Below are positions 2,172 to 63,546 of a stretch of DNA of 64,000 nt, piece by piece; position 1 is the first letter of the stretch; each line of letters starts with the position of its first letter. This stretch comes from an uncultured Verrucomicrobiae bacterium. GTDB taxonomy: Bacteria; Verrucomicrobiota; Verrucomicrobiia; Chthoniobacterales; JAFAMB01. The notes beneath the pieces were generated by a model that saw nothing but the letters and a program-made list of their open reading frames with translations, searched no databases and was not told the DNA's origin. The DNA lies in contig CAVXLD010000003.1 in NCBI GenBank assembly GCA_963762565.1, positions 352,001-416,000 on the forward strand, written 5' to 3'. The position numbers and the translations under genes were made by a program.

Positions 2172-3164
2172 ATGGAATACCGCGAGCTGGGGAATACGGG
2201 ACTTGAGGTATCTGTTCTAGGTTTCGGAGCGTCTTCTTTAGGAGGTGTCTTCCATCCGGTCGATCCGGATGACTGTCTTAAGACGGTGCGAGCCGCTTTA
2301 GATGGCGGCATTAACTTCTTCGATGTCTCGCCCGCTTATGGTGAGACCCTGGCAGAAACGAACCTGGGGAAGGCGCTCAAAGGAATCGCCCGTGATCGCT
2401 ATTATCTGGCGACGAAGGTGGGTTCTTACAGTGAGGCGAGAGGGGACTATGATTATTCAGCTGCCCGCACGGAACGGAGCCTGCACCAAAGCTTGAGCAG
2501 GCTTGGTGTCGACTATGTGGATTTAGTTCAATGCCACGACATTGAGTTTGCTGATCGCAACCAAATTTTGGAGGAGACTCTTCCCACTCTGCGCCGCTTG
2601 AAAGAGGTAGGATTAGCTCGTTTTATTGGGATTACCGGTCTGCCGCTCCGGGTCTTCCCGAATGTTCTGGATAACGCGGGGGAAAACCAAGTGGATACGA
2701 TCCTTTCGTTTTGTCACTACGAATTGAATGACCACTCTTTGCTTGAGTTGCTGCCCTATCTGACGAAAAGGGGGGTCGGTGTGATCAACGCGTCTCCGAC
2801 CGGGATGGGGTTATTGACTCCACAAGGCGCTCCCGCCTGGCATCCGGCGAGCAAACTGATCATCGATGGCTGCCGAAAAGCGGTCGAATACTGCCAAACC
2901 CGGGGGATAGATATCGTGAAACTTGCTATCCAGTTCGCCTGCTCGCAGCCCGGCATCGCCACCACCCTCGTGAGCACCGCGCGCCCGAGCAATATCCGCG
3001 ACAACATTGCCTACGTCGAAGAACCGATAGATCAGAGTCGGCTTGCCGAGGTGCTGGACGTACTCAAGCCCATCCACAATTTCAACTTTACCCGCGGCCG
3101 GTCAGAGCATCGCGACTTGTTAGTAGGCCCCGCTAGCGATTCGCCCGGCTGGGCTGTTTCATGA
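2172..3164 (+). CDS. Aldo/keto reductase, L-galactose dehydrogenase-like
   Basis: MEYRELGNTGLEVSVLGFGASSLGGVF, GINFFDVSPAYG, ATKVG, DLVQCHDIEF, GITGLPL, SFCHY match the L-galactose dehydrogenase subgroup of AKRs. Substrate is inferred. Confidence 0.8.
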   Translation: MEYRELGNTGLEVSVLGFGASSLGGVFHPVDPDDCLKTVRAALDGGINFFDVSPAYGETLAETNLGKALKGIARDRYYLATKVGSYSEARGDYDYSAARTERSLHQSLSRLGVDYVDLVQCHDIEFADRNQILEETLPTLRRLKEVGLARFIGITGLPLRVFPNVLDNAGENQVDTILSFCHYELNDHSLLELLPYLTKRGVGVINASPTGMGLLTPQGAPAWHPASKLIIDGCRKAVEYCQTRGIDIVKLAIQFACSQPGIATTLVSTARPSNIRDNIAYVEEPIDQSRLAEVLDVLKPIHNFNFTRGRSEHRDLLVGPASDSPGWAVS

Positions 3165-4187
3165 AAGCGATTCGTCTGGAAGCACCTGGCCGCTTCGCTC
3201 CGGTAACCCTTGACCCGGCTTCCACGCAGCTGCAACCCGACGAGGCCCTGGTTCGGGTTCACCGGATTGGCGTTTGTGGAACCGACATGCATGCTTTCAG
3301 GGGCGATCAGCCGTTTTTTAGTTATCCTCGAATCCTTGGTCATGAGCTCGGGGTCGAGGTATTGGAGTTGGGCGGACCTGCCGAAGGAATTCGACGCGGC
3401 CAGTTTTGCGCGGTTGAGCCTTACCTCAATTGCGGAACCTGCATTGCGTGCCGCCATGGGAAACCTAATTGCTGCGTTAAATTGCTAGTGCTTGGAGTTC
3501 ACGTCGACGGCGGGATGCGCGAAAGGTTGGTTCTGCCCAATCCGTAAACTCCATTTTTCCGAGAGCCTGGCCCTGGATCAGTTGGCGCTAGTCGAAACGC
3601 TGGCGATCGGTTGCCACGCGGTCGATCGGGCGGCTCTGGAAAGCAATGAATTTGTTTTGGTGATCGGCGCCGGGCCGATTGGGCTTGGGGTGGTGCAATT
3701 CGCTATCGAAGCCGGAGCCCAGGTCATCGTCTTGGATATTAGTCCACACCGTCTCGAGTTTTGCCGGAGCCGGCTTAACGTTCCCTACACGATCGATGCT
3801 TCCCGTGAAAATGTGCTGGCGGCGTTAGCAGAGATAACGTCAGGGGATTTACCCACTGCCGTTTTCGACGCCACCGGCAATGGACGATCGATGGCCAGCG
3901 CGTTTGAATATCCGGCGAACGGCGGTCGCCTGATTTTTGTGGGTCTGGTTCAAGGAGAAGTCGCTTTCAATGACCCTAATTTTCATCGCCGCGAGCTGAC
4001 GATTCTGGCTAGCAGAAACGCGCGTCCGGACGATTTTACCCGCATCATCACCCTGATCGAAGCGAATAGAATCGATACATCACCCTGGATCACGCACCGA
4101 GCTTTGCTCCCCGACGTGGTGACCGAATTCCCGCTCTGGACCAAGCCCGGTAGCGGGGTGGTGAAGGCGATGATCGAGGTGGTCTGA
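3161..4187 (+). pseudogene. Zn-dependent (MDR) sugar-acid dehydrogenase, L-galactonate 5-dehydrogenase-like; +1 frameshift near 3536-3540 (pseudogene or sequencing indel)
   Basis: N-half (GVCGTDMH, GHE, CxxCxxC...C) in ORF 3161..3547; C-half (GAGPIG, DATGN, FHRRELT, SRNA) in ORF 3492..4187. Removing one base from ctgcccaatccgt joins ...RERLVLP-IRKLHFSESL... Confidence 0.85.
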
Positions 4188-9116: not shown

Positions 9117-9181
9117 TGGAGGAAAGGAGTCGAGGAGTTCAAGAAGTTCAAGGAGAGGAGCCAGGAGTCAGGAGGCCGCAG

Positions 9182-9373
9182 CCGTGGAGCGCGCCTCGCT
9201 TGCGAGGCCGTGGTGAACAAGGTTGAAGGGATGGCGGAAACATGAGTTGGCTGCACTCTTGCGTTTATTATAAGGAAGCAACCGGCCACGAAATAGGGCG
9301 CAGACAGAGATAGGATCTGCGTCATGGTGTTCGTTTGCTTACCACGGCCTCGCAAGCGAGGCACGCTCCACGG
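9182..9373. repeat. Family A REP-like doublet (inverted pair of GGCCTCGCAAGCGAGGC-ACGCTCCACGG)
   Basis: ccgtggagcgcgcctcgcttgcgaggccgtggt ... accacggcctcgcaagcgaggcacgctccacgg; same doublets at 52446 and 63741. Confidence 0.9.
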
Positions 9374-9401
9374 GTCGCGGCGATTCGGGTTCCTGAAGAT
9401 A

Positions 9402-15655: not shown

Positions 15656-15664
15656 ACCGTAACG

Positions 15665-15683
15665 TGTCGCAAATCTACAAGAC
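15665..15683 (+). promoter_or_regulatory. TGTCGCAAATCTACAAGAC, putative site or promoter motif of the AraC regulator
   Basis: Lies between the AraC stop and the next ATG; resembles the TGTC...TnCAAGAC motif I recall recurring after this AraC subfamily. Confidence 0.55.
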
Positions 15684-15714
15684 GATTGCTGCCCGGTGTG
15701 CTAGCTCGGCAGCG

Positions 15715-16254
15715 ATGAAGACGATCATAGCGCTGCTTTCTCTTTGTTTCTTGTGGTCCTCTGGATTTTCTCAGGACAACGAGTCAACGCAGTTAACGGA
15801 GATGAGAAAGCTGGCCTTCCTCGTTGGTCAGTGGGAAGGCACTGGATATTTCGAATACGCTCCAGGACAGCGCCGGGCGTTTACCGAAAGGGAGAATGTC
15901 CAGATGAAGCTCGGCGGATTGATGCTGGTTTTTGAGGGCTCAGGTCAGAGCAAGGGTGCAAACGGAGAAGCGATCACTGTGCATAGCGCTCTCGCTCTCG
16001 CCCACTATGACGATCAATCTCACACTTTCCGGTGGCAAGCCTACCGCGCCGACCGAGGCTCCTTATCAACCGTAGAGACCGAAGCCGAGGTCGCCGATCA
16101 AACGTTGGAGTGGGGCTATCAGGATAACCGTGGCGGACGGGTGCGGTTTACCATAAAACTGGATCAAACAGGAGCGTGGTCCGAGACCGGGGAGAGCAGC
16201 TCGGACGGCCAGAATTGGCGCACTTTCATGGAGATGACCCTAAAGCACCTCTGA
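15715..16254 (+). CDS. Secreted DUF1579-like protein
   Basis: Signal peptide MKTIIALLSLCFLWSSGFS-Q; LAFLVGQWEG, WSETGESSSDGQNWRTFMEMTL. Confidence 0.75.
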   Translation: MKTIIALLSLCFLWSSGFSQDNESTQLTEMRKLAFLVGQWEGTGYFEYAPGQRRAFTERENVQMKLGGLMLVFEGSGQSKGANGEAITVHSALALAHYDDQSHTFRWQAYRADRGSLSTVETEAEVADQTLEWGYQDNRGGRVRFTIKLDQTGAWSETGESSSDGQNWRTFMEMTLKHL

Positions 16255-16349
16255 TGAGAATTGGTCGAGTCGATCAAGAATTGTGAATGACCCTTTGTGC
16301 GAGGTTTTTTCGCACCGGCGAGGTGCGCTCCAGGGTGTCGACCGCTGTC

Positions 16350-16558
16350 GGCCTCGCAAGCGAGGCAAGCGCTCCACGGGTGGCGACCCCTTTCGGCCTC
16401 GCAAGCGAGGCAGCGCTCCACGGGTGGCGACCCCTTTCGGCCTCGCAAGCGAGGCAGCGCTCCGCGGGTGGCGACCCCTTTCGGCCTCGCAAGCGAGGCA
16501 CGCTCCACGGGTTGCGACCCCTTTCGGCCTTGCAAGCGAGGCACGCTCCACGGGTTGC
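16350..16558 (+). repeat. Tandem array of five 43-45 bp family A units
   Basis: GGCCTCGCAAGCGAGGC starts at 16350, 16395, 16439, 16483 and 16526 (last copy has one substitution), each followed by (A)GCGCTCCACGGGTGGCGACCCCTTTC or a variant. Between convergent genes. Confidence 0.95.
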
Positions 16559-16561
16559 GCG

Positions 16562-18217
16562 CTATCCGCCTTTGGCAAATTGGCGGGCGATTTCTTGACT
16601 CAGCGGGAGCTCGTAATCACCATTGATCCGGACATCCACAACCACAGGGCCTTCTTCGACCGCTAATGCGGCATCGATTCGGTCAAGCTCCTCCGGGTGG
16701 GTGACCCGGAAACCTTTGGCGCCGAAACCTTCCGCCAAGCGATCGAAGTCTGGTTGCGGAGTGTCAGCCAGTGTAGGATCGATCTCTTTACGCACGAGAT
16801 CGTGTTTCTCCTGACCGACAGCCTGATCGTTGAGAATGATGACCGTGAGAGGAAGGTGGAACGCGACTGCCGTATAAAAATCAGCCACGTTCATCATGAA
16901 AGCCGCATCGGCGGTGACATGAGTGACGCGTTCTCCGGGCCGGGCGAAACAAGCTCCAATGGCGATGGATAACCCTTGTCCGATCGATCCGAAATCCCAG
17001 CCGTTGCCCCAGCTGTCGGCATTGGGCGAGGTAAGAATTTGTTGAGAGACTAAACCGGCGTGGCCACCGTCGATCACGATGATCCGGTCGCGTTTTGGCA
17101 GTCTATCCTCCACATACCAAACCGCGCGCCGGGGATCGACCGAACCACCATCTTCAAAATCGGGGCGAACGAAAGAGAACTGCTTTATCTTTTGGATGGT
17201 CTGATCGTCAGGTTGGCGAGGAGCAGTCCGGGTCTCTTGGAGCCTCTTCAGTAGAGCCAGCAGAGCGATGCGGGCATCTCCTTCCAGGCCGACATCGACC
17301 GGCGTGTAAAAACCGAAAGCGTTATGTCGCCGGTCTATCTGAATCACTTTTTTATTTTGTAGGACGGCGCGGTTTTGTGTGGTCCAAGGATTAAGACTGG
17401 CGCCAATCGCGATCGCAAGGTCGGCTTCATTCAAGACGTCGTTCGCCAGGCCGGTGCCGAGGCCGCCGCTTACGCCCAAATAGAGTGAGTAATCGGAACA
17501 CATCCCCTTTGCGGGCAAGGTCACGGCAACGGGAGCACCGAGGTATTTTGCCAGCGCTAACACTTCGGGTTCGGCATGGGCGGCGCGCGCGCCTAACCCG
17601 CAAATGATCACCGGCCGGTTAGCGCCCTCTATCATTTTTGCGGCGGCTTCCAGATCGTCGGCCCCCGGTGGTTGCGGCTCCGGTGCTTTGTAGACCGGAC
17701 GATAGCTCCAGTCTGGAATAGGAACATCGGCTGCCTGTATATCTTGGGGTAGATTCAGTACGAACGGACCTTCTTTCGCCCTGAGATGTCTAAACGCTTC
17801 TCCCAGAACGTAATCGACTGCTTTCGGGTGATTCAATACGACGCCCGCTTGGGTCGCTTGAATGGCCATCGCATTCTGGTCCACTAATCCTTGCATGTTG
17901 AATGGATCACTAAGCGGTGCGTGCCCCGCCAACATCAGTAAGGGGGTGCGATGAGCGCGAGCCGCCACTAACGACGTGATGGAATTAGTGAACCCAGGTC
18001 CTTGCGTAACCGTGGCAATGCCTATCTTCCCGCTCACTCGAGCATAACCGTCTGCCATGGAGGTCGCGCTCTGCTCATGTTTCGCTTGGACGAACTTAAA
18101 GCCGTACTTGCCGCAAAGCTCGCCAATCAGATACATGTTCGCATTGCCCATCACACCGAAAATGGTGTCAGCGCCTTCCTTGTGAATTGCTTCAGCAATC
18201 GCCGCGTACACTTTCAT
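16562..18217 (-). CDS. Thiamine diphosphate-dependent enzyme (acetolactate synthase-like superfamily)
   Basis: KHEQSATSMADGYAR, TQGPGFTN, variant ThDP motif TADAAF...ILND. Confidence 0.9.
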   Translation of the reverse strand: MKVYAAIAEAIHKEGADTIFGVMGNANMYLIGELCGKYGFKFVQAKHEQSATSMADGYARVSGKIGIATVTQGPGFTNSITSLVAARAHRTPLLMLAGHAPLSDPFNMQGLVDQNAMAIQATQAGVVLNHPKAVDYVLGEAFRHLRAKEGPFVLNLPQDIQAADVPIPDWSYRPVYKAPEPQPPGADDLEAAAKMIEGANRPVIICGLGARAAHAEPEVLALAKYLGAPVAVTLPAKGMCSDYSLYLGVSGGLGTGLANDVLNEADLAIAIGASLNPWTTQNRAVLQNKKVIQIDRRHNAFGFYTPVDVGLEGDARIALLALLKRLQETRTAPRQPDDQTIQKIKQFSFVRPDFEDGGSVDPRRAVWYVEDRLPKRDRIIVIDGGHAGLVSQQILTSPNADSWGNGWDFGSIGQGLSIAIGACFARPGERVTHVTADAAFMMNVADFYTAVAFHLPLTVIILNDQAVGQEKHDLVRKEIDPTLADTPQPDFDRLAEGFGAKGFRVTHPEELDRIDAALAVEEGPVVVDVRINGDYELPLSQEIARQFAKGG

Positions 18218-20319: not shown

Positions 20320-20440
20320 GGTGAGAGGTGAGAAGTGAGAAGTGAGAAGAGGGTGAGAGGTGTTACCCGCGAGACATTTGCTATTTGCTATTGGCTATTG
20401 GCTATTGGCTATTGGCTATTGGCTATTGGCTATTGGCTAT
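20320..20440. repeat. GTGAGAA/G heptamer run followed by a GCTATTG heptamer run (about 9 units) overlapping the paaI stop
   Basis: ggtgagaggtgagaagtgagaagtgagaag ... gctatttgctattggctattggctattggctattggctattggctattggctattggctatt. Confidence 0.92.
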
Positions 20441-22622: not shown

Positions 22623-22729
22623 GCAAGGGTATCAGGGGCTCGTCCTCGTTCTCGTCGTCGTCCTCGTCCTCGAGAAAGCGGGAACGGAGTAATGGAGCGG
22701 CGGAGTAATGGAGTGTTGTAGTATTGCTT

Positions 22730-28000: not shown

Positions 28001-28692
28001 TTGAAGTAATCGAATGGTTCCAGGCAAGAGTTACAGATGTAAAAGGCTTTGCAGGGAGTCGAACCGAACTGGCTGACGACTCGCGTGTCAGATGAGCCGC
28101 AACGCGGACAACAAATGGCGTCATCCTGTGCACCAGGGGCTTCGTGCTCGTGCTTCCGACTTCGCCAACCTCCTGTTGTGGAGCGCGCCTCGCTTGCGAG
28201 GCCGACTTCGAGCGGTTGGCAACATTGAGCTCGGGCTTCGTCGGACAAGCTGTGCTCGACTTCTTGCGGACGGAGTGATGGAGTAGTGGAGTGTTGGAGT
28301 GTTGCGCCTTCACCGGATTGCCGCTGGAAGCTGCGGGAGAGACGCGCGCAAGGTCCAGGCGGTGCAATACCGTATTCTAGCAATCGAGTCCTTCCGCGTT
28401 TGGTCATCCAGTCCGTTGTCCAAGCCGGCGAAAGCTGCGTTTCTATGCGGACTCGGTTTATGCCTCGCTGTTGCAGCTCCCGTTGAATGTCGTTTTTGAT
28501 GACGGCTATAGCCGGACAACCGGAGTAAGTCGGGGTGACGTTGACAACCAAGGTCGAGCTGCCGTTTTCCTCGATCCATTTAACCTTGCGCACAATCCCT
28601 AAATCAATGACTGACAATACGGGAATTTCGGGGTCGTTGACTGAGTCTAACCAAGTCCAAATTTCTTCTAGCGATGGTAAGCTCGTCAGCAT
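27991..28692 (-). CDS. paaD: Phenylacetyl-CoA epoxidase subunit PaaD with an 82-aa repeat-derived linker
   Basis: DPEIPVLSVIDLGIVR, TPTYSGCPA, LSPAWTTDW, CPRCGS, FGSTPCKA, C..CLEPFDYFKCH. Confidence 0.93.
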   Translation of the reverse strand: MLTSLPSLEEIWTWLDSVNDPEIPVLSVIDLGIVRKVKWIEENGSSTLVVNVTPTYSGCPAIAVIKNDIQRELQQRGINRVRIETQLSPAWTTDWMTKRGRTRLLEYGIAPPGPCARLSRSFQRQSGEGATLQHSTTPSLRPQEVEHSLSDEARAQCCQPLEVGLASEARSTTGGWRSRKHEHEAPGAQDDAICCPRCGSSDTRVVSQFGSTPCKAFYICNSCLEPFDYFKCH

Positions 28693-28697
28693 GGCAG

Positions 28698-29472
28698 TTA
28701 CCATTTAGCTTGGGGATAGGCACGCTGCAGAAACTGCATCTCAGCTAACAAATAGCCCAGCGCCTCGGTGTGAATGCCGTACTTGCCGCCGGTGTGCATC
28801 CAATCCGATTCAGGGATTTGCAGGGTAGCCTCGGTGAGGACGGCTCTCACGCTAGACAGCCAATCCGTAGCCAATTTTGTTCAAGTCCAGGCCGATTCGC
28901 TCCCCCCACATGGCCTCATCGACCGAGTCAGGTTTATATAATTCACCCGTGTAACACCAAAGATCGTCTATCGCTTTTTGGATCCTGCGGTTGCTTTCGT
29001 CGGTTCCGTCTCCCAAGCGAATCACCCACCCGCTGCTGTGGCGTAGATGATAGGTGACTTCTTTTAGACTCTTTTCGCTGATCTCTCGAATCCGTTGATC
29101 GGTTGAGTCCAGCAAATCAGTTAGCGCTAAATGGTGCCAGGTATCAAAGTAGAACTGACGAGCCATGGTGTAGGCAAAATCCTGGTTGGGCTGTTCCAGC
29201 AAAAGACAGTTCCTGAAGTCGCCCGCATCTCGAAGGAAGGCAAGTATGTCTGGTGTCCGCTGGCGGCCTTCCAATTCAGCGGCGTATTCCAGCCAGTTCT
29301 GCGCCTGACCGTTGAGATCCAGCGCGATGTTAGTTAAAGCCATATCCTCTTCCAGCTCCGGCCCATGTCCGCACCATTCACCGAGGCGCTGGCTCAAGAT
29401 GAGACAGTTGTCGGCCAGCCGGAGGACGAACTCGAGGCGGGGGTTCTGAGCGCTGGGAGGTGGAGGCATCAT
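28698..29472 (-). pseudogene. paaC: Phenylacetyl-CoA epoxidase subunit PaaC, +1 frameshift in an A4 run (28875-28878); pseudogene or sequencing error
   Basis: LSQRLGEWCGHGPELEEDMAL, KEVTYH. Removing one A restores ...NKLATDWLSSVRAVLTEATLQIP...GGKYGIHTEALGYLLAEMQFLQRAYPQAKW*. Confidence 0.9.
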
Positions 29473-29478: not shown

Positions 29479-29600
29479 AATAGATCGCAAATCGCAAATC
29501 GCAAATAGCAAATTAGTGGACAGCGCCGGGTGCGGAGTTGTCGTCTCTTTTCTCATGCTCGGTGAGCCAATTTGCTATCTGCTATCTGCTATTTGCTATT
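29479..29600. repeat. Inverted pair of ATAGCAA/ATCGCAA heptamer runs (family J) around a ~60-bp unique loop
   Basis: atcgcaaatcgcaaatcgcaaatagcaaat ... atttgctatctgctatctgctatttgctatt, between paaB and paaC. Confidence 0.85.
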
Positions 29601-29609
29601 TCGTAAGCC

Positions 29610-29891: not shown

Positions 29892-30019
29892 AGGCAGGGA
29901 GGGCGCGCAGCCTGTCCGACATAGCCTGCGGCCCTGCGGTTGTCTTTTCTTTTGCTCGGCGAAGTCGGATCCCCGCGCGCCGCGGGATAGCCAATAGCCG
30001 AGGAGGAAGCAGGGGAATA

Positions 30020-30143
30020 ACAGATAGCAGATAGCAAATAGCAAATGGACAAGCCCAAGTGTGCTCGAAACACTGTCGACCATTGAAAATGGTAGTGAAC
30101 TTGTTGCGGAACCATTTGCTAATTTGCTATCTGCTATTTGCTA
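30020..30143. repeat. Inverted pair of family J heptamer runs; the right arm supplies the paaA stop codon
   Basis: cagatagcagatagcaaatagcaaat ... atttgctaatttgctatctgctatttgctat. Confidence 0.85.
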
Positions 30144-31104
30144 TGGCCGAGCGCTTGCGCGCATAGGCATTGGCTGCTTCCCGGACCCAGGCGCCATCGG
30201 CATGAGCTTGGCGGCGGGTTCGTAGACGTTGGACATTGCAGGGACCATTTCCCTTGATGACACTATAAAATTCTGCCCAGTCGATCTCCCCGAAATCGTA
30301 GTGTCCGGTCTCCTCGTTCCATTTTAAATCCGGATCAGGAACAGTCAGATCGAGGTACTCGGCCTGAGGCACGGTCTGGTCGATGAATCGTTGCCGAAGC
30401 TGATCGTTAGTCAGCAATTTGATTTTCCAACGGACCGACTCGGCGGTATGCGAGGATTGGGCGTCAGGCGGGCCAAACATCATGAGCGAAGGCCACCACC
30501 AACGGTTCAGCGCGTCTTGGGCCATACTTCGTTGAGCCCCGGTCCCTCGGGCCATGACCGTCATTATCTCGAAACCCTGGCGTTGATGAAAACTTTCTTC
30601 CTTACAGATCCGAATCATCGCCCTCGCGTAGGGGCCGTATGAACAGCGGCACAACGGGATCTGATTCATGATAGCCGCGCCGTCCACTAACCAACCAATG
30701 GCGCCGATATCTGCCCAGGTAAGGGTAGGATAGTTGAAGATGCTGGAATACTTCGCTTTCCCCACCAACAGGTCATTGACCAGTTGTTCCCGGGTGATGC
30801 CTAAAGTCTCGGCCGCACCGTAAAGATAAAGACCGTGACCGGCTTCGTCCTGGACTTTGGCTAACAAGATGGCCTTACGCTGCAAGCTAGGAGCACGCGT
30901 GATCCAGTTAGCCTCCGGCAACTGACCCACGATTTCGGAATGCGCGTGTTGCGAGATCTGCCGGATTAAAGTTTTGCGATAGCCTTCCGGCATCCAATCC
31001 CGAGCTTCGATAGTGTCGCCCGCATCGATGCGCGCCTGGAACGCGGCTAATTCAGGGGATGATTCGTCGCCGATTGCGTCGACTTTGACCATCTGTGCGT
31101 ACAT
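30127..31104 (-). CDS. paaA: Phenylacetyl-CoA epoxidase catalytic subunit PaaA
   Basis: [56 protein letters not shown]. Confidence 0.96.
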
Positions 31105-33170: not shown

Positions 33171-33580
33171 TCGGTAGGGCGAAAAACTCGGCGCGCCCCT
33201 GATTGCGTTTCGGTATTGGGTAATTCGCGCCGGTTTTGAGCCGCGCCGTGGGCCCGGCATCGGTCACAAATCATCTCGAACGCAATGCTTTGATTTTGCC
33301 GCGCCGTGGAGCGGGCGATCCCCACGGCACGGCTCAAATCCGGCGCGAAATTCATCCTTAGAGGTGGCAACGTCCTGGGCGCGCCGAGACCCGCCGCCGC
33401 TACGCTTTGGCGCGGCCCGGCCCTGCGTTGTGTCACGCCTTGAGATTGGCCGCGACGTAGGCCTTGCGAAGTCGGGTTTTTCGCCGTACCACTTGACAGA
33501 ACGGTCAAGTAAGGGGATATCCCTGTATTCTCCGATGCGTAATTCTCTTTGCTTAACGCTCGTGCCTACCTAGGTGCTCT

Positions 33581-36500
33581 ATGTGGATCGTTAAACTCGC
33601 TCTCACTCGGCCGTATACCTTTATCGTGTTCGCACTTCTGATCTTTGTGTTGAGCCCGTTGATCATCCTGCGGACGCCCACGGACATTTTCCCGAACATC
33701 GATATTCCGGTGATCTCGGTCGCGTGGACCTATACTGGCCTGAACCCGGAAGATATCGAGGGGCGGTTGACCACGCCTTACGAGAAAGTGCTCACTACGC
33801 TGGTTGATAATATCGAGCACATAGAATCCACGAGCTATAACGGTGCCTCCGTCATCAAAATCTTTCTGCAACCGCATGCGAGCTTGGATCGAGCGAACTC
33901 TCAGGTGGTCAGCGCTTCTCAATTTGCGCTGCGATTGCTGCCATCGAGTATTCAGCCGCCTGAGATTATTAATTTCAGCGCTTCTAGCGTACCGATTCTT
34001 CAACTTGGACTCTCCGGTCAGGGTCTCTCCGAACAACAATTGAATGACCTGGCACTGAATTTTGTCCGGACGCAAATGATCACGGTTCCGGGAGCGGTGA
34101 TTCCTCTTCCCTACGGCGGCAAGCAGCGTCAGGTGATGATCAATCTGGATCACAACCTGATGCAGGCGAGAAACATTTCGCCGACGGATGTTCTCAGCGC
34201 AGTGAATGCCCAAAGCCTGGTGCTCCCGTCTGGCACCGTGAAGCTGGGTCAGAGCGAATTGGATATCCGGGCCAACACGTATCCTCGGACCGTGGCCGAA
34301 CTGAACAATCTACCGATCAAGCAGGTGGGCGATACCACGGTTTATCTGCGAGACGTCGCTACGGCTAGCGACGGGTTTGCGCTACAGACGAACGTGGTTC
34401 GCCAGGATGGCCGACGTGGTGTGCTGATGAGTATCCTCAAAGCGGGAAACGCATCGACTCTCAGTGTGGTGAGCGGCGTAAAAACTCTACTCCCGCGCGT
34501 GGCTACCATTGTTCCGCCGGCGCTGAAAATGACGCCTTTGGCAGATCAAAGCATTTTCGTACAGAGTGCGGTGAACGGGGTTATCCGGGAGGCGGTGATT
34601 GCGGCAGCGTTAACCGGGCTCATGATCCTTTTATTCCTAGGGAGTTGGCGGAGCACCCTGATCATTGCTGTCTCTATACCGCTATCGATTTTGACCTCAA
34701 TAATGATCATCAGCCTTCTTGGCGAAACGATCAATATCATGACGCTGGGAGGCTTGGCCCTGGCGGTTGGGATACTAGTCGATGATGCTACGGTCACGAT
34801 CGAGAATATCGAGCGGGTACTAAGGCAGGGACGTTCCCTTCACGATGGCATTTTAGAAGGCGCAGCCCAGATTGCCGTACCGGCCTTAGTCTCTACCCTC
34901 TGTATCTGTATCGTTTTTCTTCCCATGTTTCTCTTGGACGGGGTCGCGCGTTATCTTTTCGTCCCCCTGGCAGAAGCCGTGGTGTTTGCCATGCTGGCCT
35001 CGTACGTCCTCTCGCGAACGTTAGTTCCTACGTTAGCGATGTATCTATTGAAGGCCAAACATCATGAGCCGAATCCGAAAAACATCTTTGCCCGTCTGCA
35101 ACACGGGTTCGAAAAAGGGTTCGAGTTAGTTCGAAACAGCTATAGCGGATTGCTCACCAGTTTGGTGGCTCATCGCAAGCTATTTATCCCGGCGTTTCTT
35201 GGGGCCTGTCTATGCGGGGTTTTCCTGGTGCCGTGGCTAGGCCAGGACTTTTTTCCTGACACCGATAGTGGTCAATTCATTCTGCATGTTCGCGCTAGGA
35301 CTGGGACCCGAATTGAAGAGACCGCGCGTTTGTTCGACTTGGTTGAGGACGTTATCCGGCAAAACATTCCAGCCAAAGAGATGGACAACATCCTGGATAA
35401 CATCGGTTTGCCCTATAGCCCGTACAATACCATGCACTCAACCTCGGGGGTGTTAGGCGCAAACGATGGCGACGTATTGGTATCGCTCCGCCAGAATCAT
35501 AGTCCGGTGGCTGATTATGTTCGGGACCTTCGGGTTCTGCTGCCGCAGCGGTTTCCCGGCGTCACCTTCTACTTTTTGCCGGCTGATATTGTGACGCAGA
35601 TTCTTGATTTTGGTCTTCCGTCTCCGATCGATGTCCAGGTTGAAGGCAATGATGTGGTGGCAAGCCAACAGATCGCTGAGAAGCTAATGGCCAAGATGCG
35701 GCAGGTTCCGGGCTTGGTTGATCTGAGGGTACAGCAGCCACTGGACTATCCGACGTTGGATGTCGCGGTTGACCGGGTAAAAGCGCTCCAAGCTGGCTAC
35801 ACAGAGCAGAATGTTGCTAACAGCGCATTGAACGCTCTGAGCGGGAGTTTTCAGATAACTCCGTTGTTCTTTATGAACTGGAAGAACGGAGTCAATTACA
35901 ACTTAGTGGCTCAGACCCCTCAATATCGATTCCAGTCAATAAACGACCTCCTCAATATTCCGCTCCCGGCGGCCAGCGGAAGTAACACCGAGATATTGGG
36001 AGACATCGCCTCCGTCAGCCGTGGCCACGAGATGGGATTAATCACCCACTACAACATCCGCCGGGTCATTGATATTTACGGGGCGGTCCAGGACCGAGAT
36101 TTGGGTGCAGTGAGCCGGGACGTGCAAAAGATCGTCGATAATAGCCGGTCACAACTTCCGCGCGGTACGTTCCTAACGATCCGCGGCCAAGTGCGAACCA
36201 TGGACAGCTCGTATACCGGCCTTTTGACAGGCTTGGGGTTAGCCGTGGTGCTGGTTTACATGTTGATCGTCATTAACTTTCAATCGTGGCTGGATCCATT
36301 CATTATCATTACCGCGTTACCGGCTGCCCTGACTGGTATCGTTGTTTTTCTGTTTTTGACGCATACCACGCTCAGCGTCCCGGCTCTAATGGGAGCGTTG
36401 ATGTGTATGGGAATCGCGACTGCCAACAGCATCTTAGTGGTTTCTTTTGCTAAAGAGCGTTTACGGGAACACGGAGATTCGGTACGCGCGGCTGTCGAAG

Positions 36501-36796
36501 CGGGAGCAACTCGGTTCCGTCCGGTGGTAATGACCGCCCTGGCGATGATCATCGGCATGATTCCGATGGCTCTTGGACTAGGGGACGGCGGTGAACAAAA
36601 CGCGCCGTTAGGCCGGGCTGTGATCGGGGGGTTACTGGCTGCGACGGTCGCTACCTTGGTCTTCGTTCCTTCGGTTTTCAGTATGCTGCATTATCGCGCC
36701 TCGAGGGTCGGCCTCGCAAGCGAGGCGCGCTCCACGTACGCCTCGAGGGTCGACGCCAGTGCAGCCGGGCAATCGGACCCGGTAACTAACAGCTAA
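33581..36796 (+). CDS. RND efflux transporter permease subunit (AcrB/AcrD/AcrF superfamily)
   Basis: MWIVKLALTRPYTF, GILVDDATVTIENI, RFRPVVMTALAMIIGMIPMALG.G.GGEQNAPLGRAVIGG. Confidence 0.95.
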   Translation: MWIVKLALTRPYTFIVFALLIFVLSPLIILRTPTDIFPNIDIPVISVAWTYTGLNPEDIEGRLTTPYEKVLTTLVDNIEHIESTSYNGASVIKIFLQPHASLDRANSQVVSASQFALRLLPSSIQPPEIINFSASSVPILQLGLSGQGLSEQQLNDLALNFVRTQMITVPGAVIPLPYGGKQRQVMINLDHNLMQARNISPTDVLSAVNAQSLVLPSGTVKLGQSELDIRANTYPRTVAELNNLPIKQVGDTTVYLRDVATASDGFALQTNVVRQDGRRGVLMSILKAGNASTLSVVSGVKTLLPRVATIVPPALKMTPLADQSIFVQSAVNGVIREAVIAAALTGLMILLFLGSWRSTLIIAVSIPLSILTSIMIISLLGETINIMTLGGLALAVGILVDDATVTIENIERVLRQGRSLHDGILEGAAQIAVPALVSTLCICIVFLPMFLLDGVARYLFVPLAEAVVFAMLASYVLSRTLVPTLAMYLLKAKHHEPNPKNIFARLQHGFEKGFELVRNSYSGLLTSLVAHRKLFIPAFLGACLCGVFLVPWLGQDFFPDTDSGQFILHVRARTGTRIEETARLFDLVEDVIRQNIPAKEMDNILDNIGLPYSPYNTMHSTSGVLGANDGDVLVSLRQNHSPVADYVRDLRVLLPQRFPGVTFYFLPADIVTQILDFGLPSPIDVQVEGNDVVASQQIAEKLMAKMRQVPGLVDLRVQQPLDYPTLDVAVDRVKALQAGYTEQNVANSALNALSGSFQITPLFFMNWKNGVNYNLVAQTPQYRFQSINDLLNIPLPAASGSNTEILGDIASVSRGHEMGLITHYNIRRVIDIYGAVQDRDLGAVSRDVQKIVDNSRSQLPRGTFLTIRGQVRTMDSSYTGLLTGLGLAVVLVYMLIVINFQSWLDPFIIITALPAALTGIVVFLFLTHTTLSVPALMGALMCMGIATANSILVVSFAKERLREHGDSVRAAVEAGATRFRPVVMTALAMIIGMIPMALGLGDGGEQNAPLGRAVIGGLLAATVATLVFVPSVFSMLHYRASRVGLASEARSTYASRVDASAAGQSDPVTNS

Positions 36797-36814
36797 AAAA
36801 GAGGAGTAGAGAAA

Positions 36815-38044
36815 ATGCCAATTGAATCGCACGAAACCATGGCTGGGTTGCCGTCGGAAGTCGCGACCCAGGTCGCCAAAGTTACCTCGCCCAAGCGATC
36901 GCAAACTCGGCGACCAATCATTATCGGAGGCGCTATCTTGATCGCAGGGTTCGCTTTTTGGATTTACTCCGGAATCAATTCTCGGCTCGATGCTGAGAAA
37001 AAACTGGAAAAGACCGTCAAACTCACGTCGACTGCGGTGGTTAATGTCGTGCATCCGACGAGTGGTTCCGATGCCCAGGCAATTGAATTACCCGGCAACA
37101 CGCAGGCTTTCACGGATGCCCCGATTTATGCCCGGACGAGCGGTTATCTAAAACAATGGTATTTCGATATCGGCGCTCGGGTTAAGCGAGGACAACTTCT
37201 GGCGGAGATCGAGACACCCGAGTTAGACGAGCAATTGGATCAAGCCGAGAACCAGGTAAAAACAGCAGAAGCGAATCTCCAATTAGCGCAGGTCACGGCG
37301 GACCGCTGGGTCTATTTAGAGAAGTCGAGTGTCGTCTCGAAACAGGAGCGAGATCAAGCAGTTAGCGATCTAAACGCCAAACGCGCAACCGCTGATTCGG
37401 CCAGAGCGAACGTAGCCCGGTTGCAAAAACTGCAAGAGTTTGAGCATGTGTACGCGCCATTCGATGGCGTGATTACGGCGCGGAACACGGACATTGGAGA
37501 CCTGATTCAGGGAGATAATACGGCTCCGAAGGAATTGTTCCATCTGGCTGCTGTGGGCAAACTCCGGGTTTATATTTCTGTGCCGGAAGTTTATGCGGCG
37601 GCGATCAAGTCCGGCGAGACGGTGACGCTAAGTCTGGATGCGTTTCCTGGAGAAAAGTTTACCGGTATACTAGTCCGAGATTCTAATTCGATCGATCAAG
37701 CCTCTCGGACCTTGCGAGTGGAGGTCGATGTCGATAATCCTACCGGGCGTTTGCTACCTGGAGCCTACGCATTTGTGTATTTGAAGCTCCCCTCGGCGGC
37801 AGGGGCCGTCACGGTTCCGACCAATACCTTGTTATTTCGAGCCGAGGGGTTACGCGTGGCAGTCGTGCGAGACGGGCAGGTGAAGTTAGTTCCGATCACG
37901 ATCGGTCACGACTATGGGAGTACAGTCGAAGTGTTGAATGGCTTGACGGCAGGGGACAGCGTAATTCTGGATCCGTCCGATTCGATCATAGATGGTTCGC
38001 CGGTGAAGATTGCTGAGCCGGTGAAAGTGGCGGCCTCTAAATGA
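36815..38044 (+). CDS. RND efflux periplasmic adaptor (membrane fusion protein)
   Basis: N-terminal transmembrane anchor, IYARTSGYL...DIGARVKRGQLLAEI, APFDGVITARN. Confidence 0.93.
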   Translation: MPIESHETMAGLPSEVATQVAKVTSPKRSQTRRPIIIGGAILIAGFAFWIYSGINSRLDAEKKLEKTVKLTSTAVVNVVHPTSGSDAQAIELPGNTQAFTDAPIYARTSGYLKQWYFDIGARVKRGQLLAEIETPELDEQLDQAENQVKTAEANLQLAQVTADRWVYLEKSSVVSKQERDQAVSDLNAKRATADSARANVARLQKLQEFEHVYAPFDGVITARNTDIGDLIQGDNTAPKELFHLAAVGKLRVYISVPEVYAAAIKSGETVTLSLDAFPGEKFTGILVRDSNSIDQASRTLRVEVDVDNPTGRLLPGAYAFVYLKLPSAAGAVTVPTNTLLFRAEGLRVAVVRDGQVKLVPITIGHDYGSTVEVLNGLTAGDSVILDPSDSIIDGSPVKIAEPVKVAASK

Positions 38045-38272: not shown

Positions 38273-40339
38273 TTAGACCACTGAAAGGTTCTCTTTTCGC
38301 AATCGCGAGAGGGCAACGCCAACTCCGTTCAGCGAGATGATCACGGCGTCCGGTTCGCAGAGCTGTTCGAGAGTGGGCGCGGGCGGAGAGTCTCCGCGCA
38401 ATAACCAGATGGTCTTCATTCCTATGCGCTGTGCGGGTCGAATATCGTTGTCCAACCGGTTACCAACGTGAATGGCGCGATCTGCCGGAACACCAGCGTG
38501 CTCCAGCGTCAGCCGGAAGATTGCTTCGTCCGGTTTCTCGATACCTGCTTCCTCTGAGAGGATAATAACACTAAAGAACCGGTCGAGCCCATCTCTGCGC
38601 AGCGCTTTTTTTGCGGCTGCGCCTGCGTTGGCGACTAACCCAAGCTTGAACCTCTGAGCCAGGCTACTCAATGCCGGCTTCACGTCAGGATAGAGGGTAG
38701 AGGCCGGATATTCCCAATATTTGTGTGCCAGCGCAACGAGAGTAGCGCGGTCACCCCCGGGGACGAACCGTTTTGCGATGGCAGTGCGCAACGATCCGGA
38801 TGATTGGCCGCGCTGTTCGTCGTACACCGCCCAGAACTCGTGTTCCTCCAAACTCGGATTCAGCTCCCGCGCAGCGCGCAATAGTGCGCGGGTGAATGTT
38901 TCATCGTCGTAGATCGTCCCTCCCAGGTCAAAGAGGATCAACTCGATCTCTTCTGGTAGTAGAGTCATTATTGGTGGATGCCCAAGGAGAGAACCGGCCG
39001 CCGCAAAAGAAAAACCGCCAAGCGGTCGTTGAGTTTCTATGCTTCCATCCGGTCTCTCGTACTCCGGGGCTGTTAAGAATAGGGCGAGGATCGCGCTGAG
39101 CGCATAGAGCGCAGCGAAGATCCAGATCACGCCTCGTATCCCGCAAAGACTGAGAAAACATCCGACAATGGCAGGTCCAAGCCACACGCTCGCGCCTGCG
39201 CCTAGATTTAGCATCGAGATCGCCGCACCAGGATTTTCCGGAGCAAGGCACGGCATGATCGCCGACAGCGGCACGTAACCGGCCAGGGTGGCGCCGTAAA
39301 GCATGGCGCTTACCACCGCCACCAGATAGTTTCCGGGAAACCTGAGCGGCAAATAATAAAGAAGTAGTGTCGTGATAGTACAACCGATCCCACCGATATA
39401 GGCCACGGTTCTGCGCCAGCCGAGGCGGTCCCCGATCATGCCCAGGGCCAGGTCACAGATAATGTTGCTGAAGAACATCCAACTCAACACCTGCAGCCAC
39501 TGGCTCAAGGTAAACCCGAGTGTTCCGACATAGAACGATGGCAGGAAAAGCAGGAAACCGAACTGTGGTGCGGTATTAATCATCCGGACAATTGAACCGA
39601 GGACTACCTTCGGTTTTTCCCAGGCGATACTGATAGCGGCGAATAACGCTTTCCGATGGTGTTGAACCTCCGCTCTCACCGGAGGAGCGCCAACCGCCCG
39701 AGGCAGGCCGAGCAACATGATGATGCCCCCAATGATTACGAACACGAGCGAGCACCAGAAGGTCGCATATTGGCCGATGAGCGGGATTGTATAACTAGCC
39801 AAAAGGGAGCCGAGTGTCGGTAACCCGGCAGTAAACGCGAACCAGAACCAACCGACAGCAGAACCTAACCGTTTCGGAGGCGTGACTGCAGCGACACAAA
39901 CCAGGAACCCGTACGCGAAAAGTGGGTAACCAAGGCCGCGAAGAAAATAGCTCAACACAAGGAGGTCGCGATCGGAGAAGGCGACTCCAAAAACGAGAAA
40001 AATAACTTCGAAAAACGCCCAGATGGCAACCCCGAGCCACATCACCACGCGGGCGCCGACGGTGTCCGCTAGAGCGCCTGACAGTCGCGCAGCGAGAGCG
40101 GCAGCCAGACCGTAAAGGGTGAACATCAAAGCGATTTTGACCTGAGAAACACCAATGCCGTTGAGAAAAGGCGCAAGGTAACCGGCTTCGATTCCGTCGC
40201 CGATCATGAACAGCAAGAGACCAAGATATCCCCAGGCAAGCTGAGGGGGAATACCCAGTCGCTTGAGAATGGTAGGACGCGTGCTGACCATGGGTACGCC
40301 TGACACCGCCGTCGCCATATGCACAACTCTAGCCTGCAA
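38273..40339 (-). CDS. MFS sugar/polyol permease (RbtT/DalT/CsbX type) fused to a C-terminal HAD-superfamily hydrolase
   Basis: GYLGLLLFMIGDGIEAGYL, RGLGYPLFAYGFL, INTAPQFGF, LNLGAGASVWLGP (12-TM MFS), then ILFDLGGT, KPDEAIF, HVGNRLDNDIRPAQRIGM (HAD class IA) in one ORF. The true start may be a downstream ATG. Confidence 0.88.
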   Translation of the reverse strand: MQARVVHMATAVSGVPMVSTRPTILKRLGIPPQLAWGYLGLLLFMIGDGIEAGYLAPFLNGIGVSQVKIALMFTLYGLAAALAARLSGALADTVGARVVMWLGVAIWAFFEVIFLVFGVAFSDRDLLVLSYFLRGLGYPLFAYGFLVCVAAVTPPKRLGSAVGWFWFAFTAGLPTLGSLLASYTIPLIGQYATFWCSLVFVIIGGIIMLLGLPRAVGAPPVRAEVQHHRKALFAAISIAWEKPKVVLGSIVRMINTAPQFGFLLFLPSFYVGTLGFTLSQWLQVLSWMFFSNIICDLALGMIGDRLGWRRTVAYIGGIGCTITTLLLYYLPLRFPGNYLVAVVSAMLYGATLAGYVPLSAIMPCLAPENPGAAISMLNLGAGASVWLGPAIVGCFLSLCGIRGVIWIFAALYALSAILALFLTAPEYERPDGSIETQRPLGGFSFAAAGSLLGHPPIMTLLPEEIELILFDLGGTIYDDETFTRALLRAARELNPSLEEHEFWAVYDEQRGQSSGSLRTAIAKRFVPGGDRATLVALAHKYWEYPASTLYPDVKPALSSLAQRFKLGLVANAGAAAKKALRRDGLDRFFSVIILSEEAGIEKPDEAIFRLTLEHAGVPADRAIHVGNRLDNDIRPAQRIGMKTIWLLRGDSPPAPTLEQLCEPDAVIISLNGVGVALSRLRKENLSVV

Positions 40340-61319: not shown

Positions 61320-61377
61320 CGATGTTCCCGGCGCGGAGGTTAGCCGATTTTTAGTATTTTGTCGTCACGGGAGATCC

Positions 61378-62070
61378 GGGAGGGCGCGCGTCCTCGCGCG
61401 CCGCGAACAGGTCTGTATTGGCGGTGTAACCCAACGCTCAGTCGGGTCTATCTTGGGCTTCGAGAACGACTGATCGCGAGGACGCGATCCCTCCCAGCGC
61501 TGGGTCCAACAATGCCCCGCGTCGGTGCGCGCGCGTTGACGTAAGGAATCGATGTGATCACCCCGGACGGGGAGGGCGCGCGTCCTCGCGCGCCGCGAAC
61601 AGGTCTGTATTGTCGGTGTAATCCTACGCTCAATCGGGTCTATCTTGGGCTTCGAGAACGACTGATCGCGAGGACGCGATCCCTCCCAGCGCTGGGTCCA
61701 ACAATGCCCCGCGTCGGTGCGCGCGCGTTGACGTAAGGAATCGATGTGATCAACCCTGACGGGGAGGGCGCGCGTCCTCGCGCGCCGCGAACAGGTCTGT
61801 ATTGTCGGTGTAATCCTACGCTCAATCGGGTCTATCTTGGGCTTCGAGAACGACTGATCGCGAGGACGCGATCTCTCCCAGCGCTGGGTCCAACAATGCC
61901 CCGCGTCGGTGCACGCGCGTTGACGTAAGGAATCGATGTGATCACCCCCGACGGGGAGGGCGCACGTCCTCGCGCGCCGCGAACAGGTCTGTATTGTCGG
62001 TGTAACCCAACGCTCAATCGGATCTATCTTGGGCTTCGAGAACAACGGATCGCGAGGACGCGATCCCTCC
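61378..62070 (+). repeat. Tandem array of 192-bp family B units (about 3.6 copies)
   Basis: AGGGCGC starts at 61381, 61573, 61765 and 61957 (exact 192-bp period); units are nearly identical. Confidence 0.95.
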
Positions 62071-62091
62071 AGGCGCGGGCATTGCTCATCC

Positions 62092-63546
62092 CTACCGCTC
62101 AATCACTATCCCGCTCCGACGCTTTAATTTTCTGTTTTGGACCTTGGTCTGAGGAAATTCGCGTTTGTCTTTATGAAAATAACAGATCTCGACCAGGGTC
62201 GGCCAAATCTCGAGGGCCGCGTGGATCTGGCTCACTACGTCATCGACAATGCGGGAGACGTTTTGTTGAAAGAAATCCGGTTCAAATCCGTAAAATGAAC
62301 GCGCCAAGGTCTCGGCAAAGAGTAGAAGAGCCTGTTTGCGTTCAGGGATTTTAGTGACGGCGGCCGCTTGCAGGACGCGCGCGTGTACCGCGGAAATGCG
62401 CTCCAAAATCTCTTCACTATCCTGCAGGCTTACTTCGCCCTCGTAGTCAAAGCGGATCGACAAATCATCAACGCTCTCAAGTGAGGACTTAATCTTTTTC
62501 TTAAGCAGAGTACATATCTCCTCGTTGAATACATCCATCGCTAACGGACTTCGCATGTAGTTGTTCTTAACATGCGTCTGGGCTGCATCGATGTGAGCTG
62601 TGACAATACCGTCCTGTTGGATCCATAACCGGTAGATGTAGTCTTCGAACCGGAGCCGGGTAGGAAAGAAAGGCGGCAAGCCCAAACGATTATCATAGCC
62701 GGCGACGCCGCAATCGATTCGCCAGTTTTTGTTGGTTACAGCGGGGCGGAAGTTTTCGAGGACGTAGACCGCGTCGAGCTCATGCAGATCGTTATGCTGC
62801 TGGTTCTGGTCATGCAGATACATCTCCAAGTAATCCAGCGCGTCGATATCGTTGGTGCCGGTGCGAAAGGTTTGAGCAATCTTTACCACCGCGTTTTTGG
62901 AGACGGGTCCTCGTTCCAAAAGCAGCGAATTTTCGATGGCGAACTCTTTGGTGACATTCGTTTCCAAATCCATCGAAGTATCGATTATCAGGTTACCGGC
63001 TTCGAAGTTGTCCGGCACTTCGCTGACCTTTTTGCCGAGGACATCTTTAAAGGACATCAAGATATCGAATGATTTTTCGATGTAACCGTTATCGCCGTTC
63101 TTCTTTAAGTGGCCACGGCTGATTTCATCCGGCCGAAGCGATTCCGGGCTGCTTTCCACTAGCGCGTAGGGACGCATATCGTCGTCAGCGCTGACCAGGA
63201 ATGAACCCAAGGTGTAAATAAGAGAAAAGTTACGGTTGCCGCCGTAACTTGGCCGGAACAGCGTCCGGACCAGGGACTCGAGTTTTCGGTCGCGCAGTTT
63301 CTTGTTCAGGAACTTCAAGAACTGCTCTTTCTCTCGAGGGCCAATGTAATAGAGGTCGTTGACGGTCCTCGTCTTCTCGAGTTTAGGAAAGTATTTTTCG
63401 TGATTTGCGAGGCTGGAATCATCGAAGACGAGCATTTTGACCGAATGGCCGTTGGTCCAAAAATGTTCGTCGTAAGCCTCAATCGTTTCGGGAACATCAC
63501 GTAAACGGTAAGTCGGTATAGCAAAGACGGTCTCTGGCAATTTCAT
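62092..63546 (-). CDS. Uncharacterised protein with GT-A/nucleotide-sugar-binding-like motifs
   Basis: AIPTYR, VFDDS, SYGGNRNF, SADDDMRP, FFPT.LRFEDY; long ORF with natural composition. Start at ATG 63546 or GTG 63579. Confidence 0.7.
   Translation of the reverse strand: MKLPETVFAIPTYRLRDVPETIEAYDEHFWTNGHSVKMLVFDDSSLANHEKYFPKLEKTRTVNDLYYIGPREKEQFLKFLNKKLRDRKLESLVRTLFRPSYGGNRNFSLIYTLGSFLVSADDDMRPYALVESSPESLRPDEISRGHLKKNGDNGYIEKSFDILMSFKDVLGKKVSEVPDNFEAGNLIIDTSMDLETNVTKEFAIENSLLLERGPVSKNAVVKIAQTFRTGTNDIDALDYLEMYLHDQNQQHNDLHELDAVYVLENFRPAVTNKNWRIDCGVAGYDNRLGLPPFFPTRLRFEDYIYRLWIQQDGIVTAHIDAAQTHVKNNYMRSPLAMDVFNEEICTLLKKKIKSSLESVDDLSIRFDYEGEVSLQDSEEILERISAVHARVLQAAAVTKIPERKQALLLFAETLARSFYGFEPDFFQQNVSRIVDDVVSQIHAALEIWPTLVEICYFHKDKREFPQTKVQNRKLKRRSGIVIER

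Follow-up and report, generated by a model that had tools for sequence, protein, structure and literature searches.

A REP-like core lies in frame between 14-nt direct repeats in the tail of an RND efflux pump of a Chthoniobacterales genome

The REPs in Table 1 of PMC2817692 have a palindrome behind an initial GTAG or GTGG, and the available text of PMC3184786 gives REPs a size of about 21-65 nt. Enzymes of the IS200/IS605 type, the relatives of the REP-linked transposases, are reported in the accessible part of PMC2817692 not to make larger duplications, and the available text of PMC3116915 reports excision footprints for REPs and no confirmed insertions. Palindromic repeats that lie in frame inside functional genes or at their 3' ends add peptide to the product, as described in the accessible sections of PMC10969869 and PMC3184786. 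The in-frame residence of small repeats in genes is already known; the repeat described here, family A, adds one unusual, informative insertion. In templated insertions an ectopic segment is copied at short homologies, the flanking bases are re-copied and the extent of the copied segment is variable. No REP-type core with a long target duplication was found in the literature searched, part of which was available as excerpts, which is weak evidence of absence, and no description of REP-type repeats in Verrucomicrobiota was found in that literature.

The stretch of DNA that was analysed (the window, 64,000 nt, within which all feature positions are counted) looks like ordinary chromosome, with a paa operon, three RND systems, a TonB receptor and sugar transport, and it is rich in short tandem repeats. 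The 16-nt hairpin of family A, GCCTCGCAAGCGAGGC, is found at 14 sites in the 64 kb, against 0.06 expected. CG stands immediately before the hairpin at all 14 sites, and CTCCAC, which contains the GTGG head, follows 1-5 bases after it at 13 of them (the copy at 16440 has CTCCGC). On the other strand, the unit reads as GTGG, about five bases and a GC-rich palindrome (stem 6 bp, loop 4 nt), and the conserved unit is about 26-50 nt long. Family A is a REP-like repeat of this genome, which belongs to Chthoniobacterales (Verrucomicrobiota) judging by the source names of the closest proteins, and it has the short multi-copy palindrome and the conserved head of a REP. The copies in the pump and in PaaD are solo cores (singlets), and the others include the array, the doublet and the three inverted pairs of Table 1. 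In these pairs the heads point outward, the spacing is 154, 145 and 168 nt, about 26-36 nt at the ends align in the manner of terminal inverted repeats, the interiors are poorly conserved and the total length is about 200 bp. A scan of the full window against Rfam at gathering thresholds gave no matches, so family A corresponds to no described RNA family. The Pfam scan detected no transposase family among the 50 window ORFs scanned, and the hairpin core was detected in none of the 74 related loci that were fetched (one mismatch allowed).

Family A shares with the REP/REPIN-RAYT systems a short GC-rich palindrome behind a GTGG head, as in the REPs of Table 1 of PMC2817692, together with a high local copy number and clustered arrays. 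Its location mostly between genes (12 of the 14 sites are outside Pfam-supported genes and two are inside genes, the pump and PaaD) and its inverted pairs recall these systems in part. It differs in that no RAYT gene lies within the window, the pairs are 145-168 nt apart rather than the 71 bp given for the SBW25 doublet in the available text of PMC3116915, some copies lie inside genes, and one copy has a 14-nt target duplication. With the Rickettsia palindromic elements, BOX/RUP, BRE and ERIC, family A has in common its in-frame residence (here in the tail of a pump, in the PaaD linker and in a regulator of the TetR family). Those elements, each with its own conserved peptide, measure about 100-150 bp, whereas the pump insert has 28 nt and codes for a module of 9-10 residues, well short of a conserved peptide module of about 30-50 residues, and family A DNA, unlike them, is read in different frames in different genes. 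MITEs (Correia, Chunjie, ERIC) resemble the three inverted pairs of about 200 bp with their TIR-like ends, and, like MITEs, the pump copy stands between direct repeats. However, the pump insert is far below MITE size and has no terminal inverted repeats, its ends (GCCTCG...CCACGTA) not being inverted copies, the MITE-like pairs lack a flanking duplication and have poorly conserved interiors, and no target duplication of fixed length accompanies each copy. Template-switch insertions (quasi-palindrome, microhomology-mediated) would be the likeness that corresponds to the reading of the pump event we favour.

Table 1. Positions of the pump locus, of the PaaD locus and of other family A features in the window
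Feature	Position	Strand	Basis or remark
Inverted family A pair (9193 minus / 9347 plus), heads outward	9181..9374	.	Ends align like terminal inverted repeats
Tandem array, 5.6 family A units, period 44 nt	16318..16559	+	Tandem Repeats Finder, 93% matches, score 391
PaaD gene, 237 aa	27991..28704	-	Pfam FeS_assembly_P, Zn_ribbon_PaaD
PaaD copy with 8-nt direct repeat CGAAGTCG	28157..28210	-	Geometry as in the pump copy
Second in-gene family A copy, PaaD interdomain linker	28175..28202	-	Same frame, EVGLASEARSTT
RND (AcrB-type) efflux permease gene	33581..36796	+	ORF; PF00873 in 120/120 listed homologues
Target stretch CGCGCCTCG	36695..36703	+	9/9 complementary to REP 3' arm CGAGGCGCG (36721-36729)
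Direct repeat copy 1 CGCCTCGAGGGTCG, pre-existing target, codes ASRV	36697..36710	+	Single homologue in L001/L031
Palindrome CCTCGAGG within the target	36699..36706, again at 36741-36748	.	Inverted repeat
Family A (REP-like) core	36711..36738	+	Hairpin 36711-36726, then GCGCTCCACG, then TA
Direct repeat copy 2, duplicated target	36739..36752	+	With 36711-36738, 42-nt net insertion
Membrane-fusion (HlyD-type) gene directly downstream of pump	36815..38044	+	Pfam HlyD_D23, HlyD_3
Further inverted family A pairs	52444-52628; 63741-63948		
Direct doublet of family A	52601/52642		

The pump ORF encodes 1071 aa with the translated tail ...HYRASRVGLASEARSTYASRVDASAAGQSDPVTNS*, and the source names of all 120 listed homologues are efflux RND permease or AcrB. 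In its tail, the 14-mer CGCCTCGAGGGTCG stands on either side of GCCTCGCAAGCGAGGCGCGCTCCACGTA. This adds a net 42 bp (14 codons) to the gene, made up of the 28-nt family A core and the second 14-mer. The sequence-only reading had described precisely this, a family A element in frame in an RND pump tail between 14-bp repeats with ASRV-GLASEARSTY-ASRV as the product; both copies of the repeat were recovered and the ORF translation bears out the peptide. The hairpin of this core has the arms GCCTCG/CGAGGC and the loop CAAG, and on the minus strand the core reads GTGG-AGCGC-palindrome. In a repeat search, the 14-mer pair is a single direct repeat of 14 nt with a spacing of 42; it is exactly 14 nt because the outer bases of the two copies differ. 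No third match to the 14-mer occurs in the window with up to two mismatches allowed. A search of the window for exact direct repeats of at least 14 nt within 100 bp yields 15 rows, and the 14 besides this one are all in tandem arrays (16318-16559, 20317-20441, 52601/52642); first-order Markov shuffles (n=30) contain a mean of 0.07 and a maximum of one such repeat. The insertion lies 44-86 nt ahead of the stop codon, past the last conserved membrane segment, in a variable C-terminal tail: beyond ...FVPxVFSxLH, the tails of homologues differ in both sequence and length.

The flanking 14-mers duplicate a sequence that was already present once in the pump gene. Of the 74 loci fetched, only L001 and L031 (95% and 94% protein identity) are closely related at the DNA level. 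Each has a single homologue of the 14-mer (CGCACCTCGAGAATCG in L001 and CGCACCTCGAAAGTAG in L031) and one clean 42-nt gap in its alignment with the window, which places the gain of the 42 bp in the window's lineage. The tails of both are colinear with the window on both sides of the gap, through the stop codon to the membrane-fusion gene, which is itself syntenic in the two loci (blastn synteny 33491-38025). Synteny with them is confined to 32.6-38.0 kb, so the DNA-level empty site is available for the pump only. At the protein level, 46 of the 120 listed homologues have 1057 aa (1071 minus 14), and the repeated ASRV is shared with only one protein of the 120, P0002 (1071 aa).

The pump insertion is recent, a polymorphism inside a very close group. 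An empty homologue, P0004 (1057 aa, tail ASRVGTSAAGQSDPVTNS, C-terminal end ...HYRASRVGTSAAGQSDPVTNS), is 99% identical to the window pump over 1037 aligned columns; the C-terminal end of P0005 and P0006 is ...HYRASRVEASAAGQSDLVTNS. In a FastTree phylogeny of 103 pumps from which the tails had been removed, the window pump groups with P0002, P0003 and P0004 at path lengths of at most 0.0067. Relative to the window pump, each of these three proteins has 6-7 differences in 1035 positions, five of them common to all. The empty P0004 differs from the filled P0002 at three positions and from the window pump at six of 1035, and the group that holds filled and empty alleles is probably recombining. 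Just past the site, P0004 has GT where the window pump has DA; it is thus not a simple revertant. The last residues of P0003 (1052 aa, six differences from the window over 1035 positions) are exactly ...ASKVGLASEARST. Three origins of this ending fit equally well: a 28-nt insertion without the second 14-mer (read as ACG TAA), a contig broken at the repeat's edge, and a mutation to a stop codon. Because of the last two, P0003 was rejected as proof of a duplication-free intermediate.

The site of the pump insertion is not random: it contains GTCG and the palindrome CCTCGAGG, together with nine nt complementary to the REP arm. We call the target REP-like because CGCGCCTCG is complementary to the REP arm at nine of nine positions. 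By inverted-repeat search, this complement corresponds to the REP 3' arm plus GCG. A 9-mer match to the 28-mer (either strand, copies excluded) occurs within 20 nt of just 0.5% of window positions, a figure calculated post hoc. The GTCG that precedes the PaaD hairpin is also present in the pump target. When the CG before the hairpin is counted as part of the element, the duplication shrinks to 12 nt, with the CCTCGAGG dyad at its centre. The two copies of CCTCGAGG are able to pair with each other and enclose the REP hairpin between them, and the minimum-energy DNA fold of the pump locus has this outer CCTCGAGG stem and the inner hairpin. The z-score of this fold is -1.0 to -1.1, and that of the PaaD locus is -2.0; these are weak, and therefore we make no structural claim from energy.

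The second in-gene copy lies in the linker of PaaD (translation ...PLEVGLASEARSTT...). It uses the same strand and frame as the pump copy and is preceded by a similar motif (CTCGAAGTCG in PaaD versus CTCGAGGGTCG in the pump), two points that had been made from the letters of the window and that agree with the PaaD translation and with the alignment of the flanks. A 29-nt run (36707-36735), GTCG included, is identical between the pump and PaaD copies, and the upstream flank of PaaD, CGC-TCGAA-GTCG, is similar to the whole pump 14-mer. One copy of the 8-nt repeat CGAAGTCG (28203-28210) adjoins the 5' side of the hairpin and the second (28157-28164) lies 22 nt past it, a spacing that gives a net length of 46, which is no multiple of three. 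This linker is low-complexity and hypervariable, with an in-frame 8-mer microsatellite and GAGCAC repeats, and the 8-nt repeat may be chance, the linker being full of short repeats. A block of about 30 aa that contains both the copy and its supposed target is missing from the closest PaaD orthologues, P0125 and P0126 (207 aa); another orthologue, P0124, has it. The block was also considered as a larger mobile unit and rejected: its non-REP flanks occur nowhere else in the window except as 8-mer and 6-mer microsatellites.

Family A also resides in two TetR/AcrR proteins on other contigs (P0245, P0246), as a 26-residue in-frame insert in which it is read in another frame. This insert corresponds to about 78 nt and begins in the REP tail, and a protein-level comparison found no repeated peptide flanking it. 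The nearest homologue found without the insert is 62-66% identical, too distant for base-level junctions. A peptide search for in-gene copies (E-value 10) yielded at least six proteins among 321 candidates: three repeat-array ORFs, the two TetR/AcrR regulators and one GlxA-type regulator with an N-terminal repeat. Six is a floor, because single short copies score too low for listing. What was inserted comprises a 25-nt core plus 3 nt in the pump, and the same 25 nt plus 13 other nt, followed by the 8-nt repeat, in PaaD; comparing the pump, PaaD and TetR inserts, the inserted segment differs in extent in every gene.

The 14-nt duplication is no family-wide signature and is a single case so far. 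At 11 loci, the 40 nt ahead of the hairpin were compared with the 80 nt that follow it. Besides the pump, none of the 10 loci has a non-array flanking repeat of at least 10 nt, the other long match being array-internal, and none of the three inverted pairs has an outer-flank direct repeat of at least 6 nt. The flanking repeats themselves differ in length, 14 nt at the pump and 8 nt at PaaD. The independent insertions that enter this comparison are two in the window, plus the proteins at the peptide level. The sequence-only reading had proposed to look for the empty allele in orthologous pumps and for flanking duplications at other copies, and would have fallen had both been missing. The first part stood, the single 14-mer being present in L001 and L031 and the shorter form in the 1057-aa homologues; the second did not, as no other copy in the window has a comparable duplication. 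Its wider proposal, that target duplication is how the family moves, fares poorly against the counts of 0/10 loci and 0/3 pairs, the unrepeated flanks of the TetR insert and the varying extent of the inserts, the last of which argues against a transposase with defined ends.

The same codon appears to have been used in other pump lineages. In 12 of the 120 listed homologues, the tail begins with GLA-like residues directly after the (R/K)(V/A) codon, and these GLA-tailed pumps fall in four places of the tree; the label requires at least two changes on well-supported branches and five by parsimony. In the pump frame, family A copies of the window read as GLASEARST... or GLASEAALHGW..., set by a one-base difference after the hairpin. 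The P0030 tail matches the window copy at 9347 over 12 of 16 residues, extending past the core, the P0007 and P0048 tails each match the AALHG type at 8 of 10 residues, and the tails of P0008, P0012, P0022, P0029 and P0071 are weaker matches to family A peptides. Read by eye, the tail of P0008 and P0012 (PGNQSR) resembles the ancestral tail with its frame shifted by one base. Both ARST-type and AALHG-type REP peptides are therefore encountered at one pump codon, with inserted lengths that differ by lineage, and the presence of different subtypes there suggests, as far as peptides can tell, a hot spot.

Two readings of the mechanism survive. The one we prefer, tentatively and with a probability of roughly 0.45, is that replication or repair copied the repeat in, guided by homology, and re-copied 14 bp. 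A minimal family A core (25-28 nt) would have been copied recently into the dispensable C-terminal tail of the pump, and the same event would have re-copied 12-14 nt of the target, for a net 42 bp and 14 additional residues. The growing strand would leave the pump template at ...GTCG, pair at the same bases beside a REP elsewhere, copy the hairpin and head, and then rejoin the pump template 14 nt behind the point of departure; the donor would read ...GTCG-core-...CCACGTACG. We infer the template switch, its direction and the donor from the sequence. If the copy-in occurred in one event, the duplication would be a by-product and no signature of a transposase. Such a copy-in would account for the variable extent of the in-gene inserts, the bare canonical copies, the REP-like target and the hot spot, and the variable extent fits copy-choice better than defined ends. 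Against it counts the return junction, which reads as at most 2 nt of microhomology, and the exact abutting 14-nt repeat, which is equally expected from a staggered cut with fill-in; the post hoc calculation of the 9-nt match rarity weakens the homology argument. No donor with the 3' junction ...CCACGTA(CG) was found in the window.

The second surviving reading, a true target-site duplication, is possible but in our view less probable. Here the strands would be nicked 12-14 bp apart around the palindrome, a 28-30-nt element pasted in and the gaps filled, and this would be how family A solo cores move, as first proposed from the window. Such a staggered cut is the simplest explanation of an exact 14-nt repeat that abuts the hairpin. 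A palindromic target core is typical of symmetric target recognition, and the 12-nt duplication centred on CCTCGAGG, obtained if the CG found before 14/14 hairpins belongs to the element, points the same way, as do the PaaD 8-nt repeat with its like geometry and similar upstream motif and the use of one codon in several pump lineages, as from a site-specific enzyme. The 28-nt insert, however, has no terminal inverted repeats, and both the duplication lengths (14 versus 8) and the 3' ends of the element differ between the pump and PaaD. A flanking repeat is seen neither at the three inverted pairs nor at any other intergenic copy, the TetR insert has no repeated flanking peptide, and no transposase is among the 50 ORFs scanned; the report on IS200/IS605-type enzymes in the accessible part of PMC2817692, with no larger duplications, also speaks against it. 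That solo cores are placed by an enzyme recognising the REP-like palindrome in double-stranded DNA and nicking 12-14 bp apart seems doubtful to us, more so than the duplication itself. If true, double-strand nicking would make REP mobility here unlike the duplication-free single-strand route assumed for RAYT/IS200-type enzymes, and a palindrome-recognising enzyme would also explain the repeated hits on one pump codon across lineages.

It is improbable that the REP at the pump codon is old and that the empty alleles are secondary deletions between the 14-mers. Direct repeats of 14 nt that are 28 nt apart are prone to deletion, and this is the arrangement at the pump; the empty P0004 is placed among filled alleles by its core sequence, and groups with REP-like tails branch low in a clade of 74 rows. 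But the uninterrupted tail is colinear in 61 of the 120 homologues, those ending in xT[NKS]x, and in L001 and L031 as well, and the GT of P0004 beyond the site, against DA in the window, is not what a simple reversion leaves. The other REP-bearing tails use different subtypes and frames, and the tree needs two (well-supported branches) to five (parsimony) changes either way. Slightly more improbable again are two steps, in which a plain 28-nt insertion ended the protein at ...ARST via ACG TAA and a 14-mer then restored the frame. The ending of P0003 at ...ASKVGLASEARST is as a 28-nt insertion ahead of ACGCC would give it, but P0003 may equally end at a contig break by the repeat or through a TAC-to-stop substitution, and a non-tandem 14-nt duplication across 28 nt requires two strand jumps. 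Selection to restore the frame is also doubtful, given how widely this tail varies among homologues, some of which have an even shorter one. An origin by chance or by local slippage, without any mobile repeat, is hardly credible despite the abundance of short tandem repeats in the window, as the 28-nt insert matches five other window sites at up to three mismatches with none expected, it is not templated by the adjoining sequence, only 0.07 such 14-nt repeats are expected, and the 42-nt gap relative to L001/L031 also contradicts it.

The spread of REP-type repeats is still argued from indirect evidence, and the pump locus is a natural insertion caught young, with filled and empty pumps that are 99% identical, intact junctions and a repeat-like target. 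More pairs of filled and empty alleles from the same population with the same duplication would argue for a staggered cut, and scattered junctions for copy-choice at short homologies. REP cores are tolerated inside genes, in the pump tail, the PaaD linker and the TetR regulator, and are there a source of small peptide insertions.

Family A, the REP-like repeat in which a GTGG head is followed by a palindrome, is found in frame in genes other than that of the RND pump. PaaD (27991-28704, minus strand; 237 aa) is longer than many of its homologues (163-177 aa), and its interdomain linker differs in length among orthologues. In two TetR/AcrR regulators encoded on other contigs (P0245 and P0246, 242 aa), family A is translated in a different frame, as part of an in-frame insert of 26 residues (…LHGWRPLSAPQARQRSTGG…); their closest homologue lacking this insert has 217 aa.

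Repeats and unusual ORFs in the window
Feature	Position	Strand	Description
Inverted family A pairs (n = 3)	9181-9374, 52444-52628, 63741-63948		Heads outward, spacing 145-168 nt
Family A tandem array	16318-16559		5.6 units, period 44 nt, 93% matches
PaaD interdomain linker	about 28120-28330	minus	Mosaic of in-frame 8-mer microsatellite (28272-28304), family A core and GAGCAC repeats
Second short repeat family, GGAGTGTT / AACACTCC	18329-18365, 22684-22718, 28272-28304		8-nt period
7-nt tandem repeats (many)	4227-4270, 8235-8268, 8336-8383, 20320-20441, 29484-29601, 30016-30144		Intergenic
Palindromic stretch	33230-33345		Between MarR and pump genes
192-nt tandem repeat	61378-62070		3.6 copies, 96% identity; within ORF 61365..62102
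Alcohol dehydrogenase halves	3161..3547; 3492..4187		ADH_N; ADH_zinc_N
MFS transporter-HAD-type hydrolase fusion	38273-40339	minus	Single ORF, 688 aa

The three inverted family A pairs share the inner flank CACCACG...GAGCAGGG, and they look like REPINs or MITEs. No flanking duplication was found at any of the three in the window. Between the MarR and pump genes, GCCGCGCCGTGG is present twice (at 33240 and 33298) and a CGTGGAGCG motif at 33305 resembles the family A head; the palindromic stretch there could represent a further type of REP, or else an operator.

Other short repeats are also present. The 7-nt arrays at 8235 (ATAGGTT) and 8336 (AACCTAT) are mutual reverse complements about 70 nt apart, and 9.4 copies of ATTGGCT occupy 20376-20441. 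The second short repeat family occurs in at least three places in the window, one of them within PaaD.

ORF 61365..62102 (minus strand, 245 aa), which contains the 192-nt tandem repeat, has no Pfam match, and the repeat adjoins a TPR protein gene. The zinc alcohol dehydrogenase (3161-4187) appears to be divided between two ORFs that overlap and differ in frame, which may reflect a frameshift or a sequencing error.

The family A tandem array is flanked on one side by ORF 15664..16254 and on the other by a minus-strand TPP-enzyme gene (16562..18217), whose end faces it. It contains no stop in any of the six frames, and gene callers accordingly predict 'proteins' from arrays of this kind elsewhere (P0243 and P0248).
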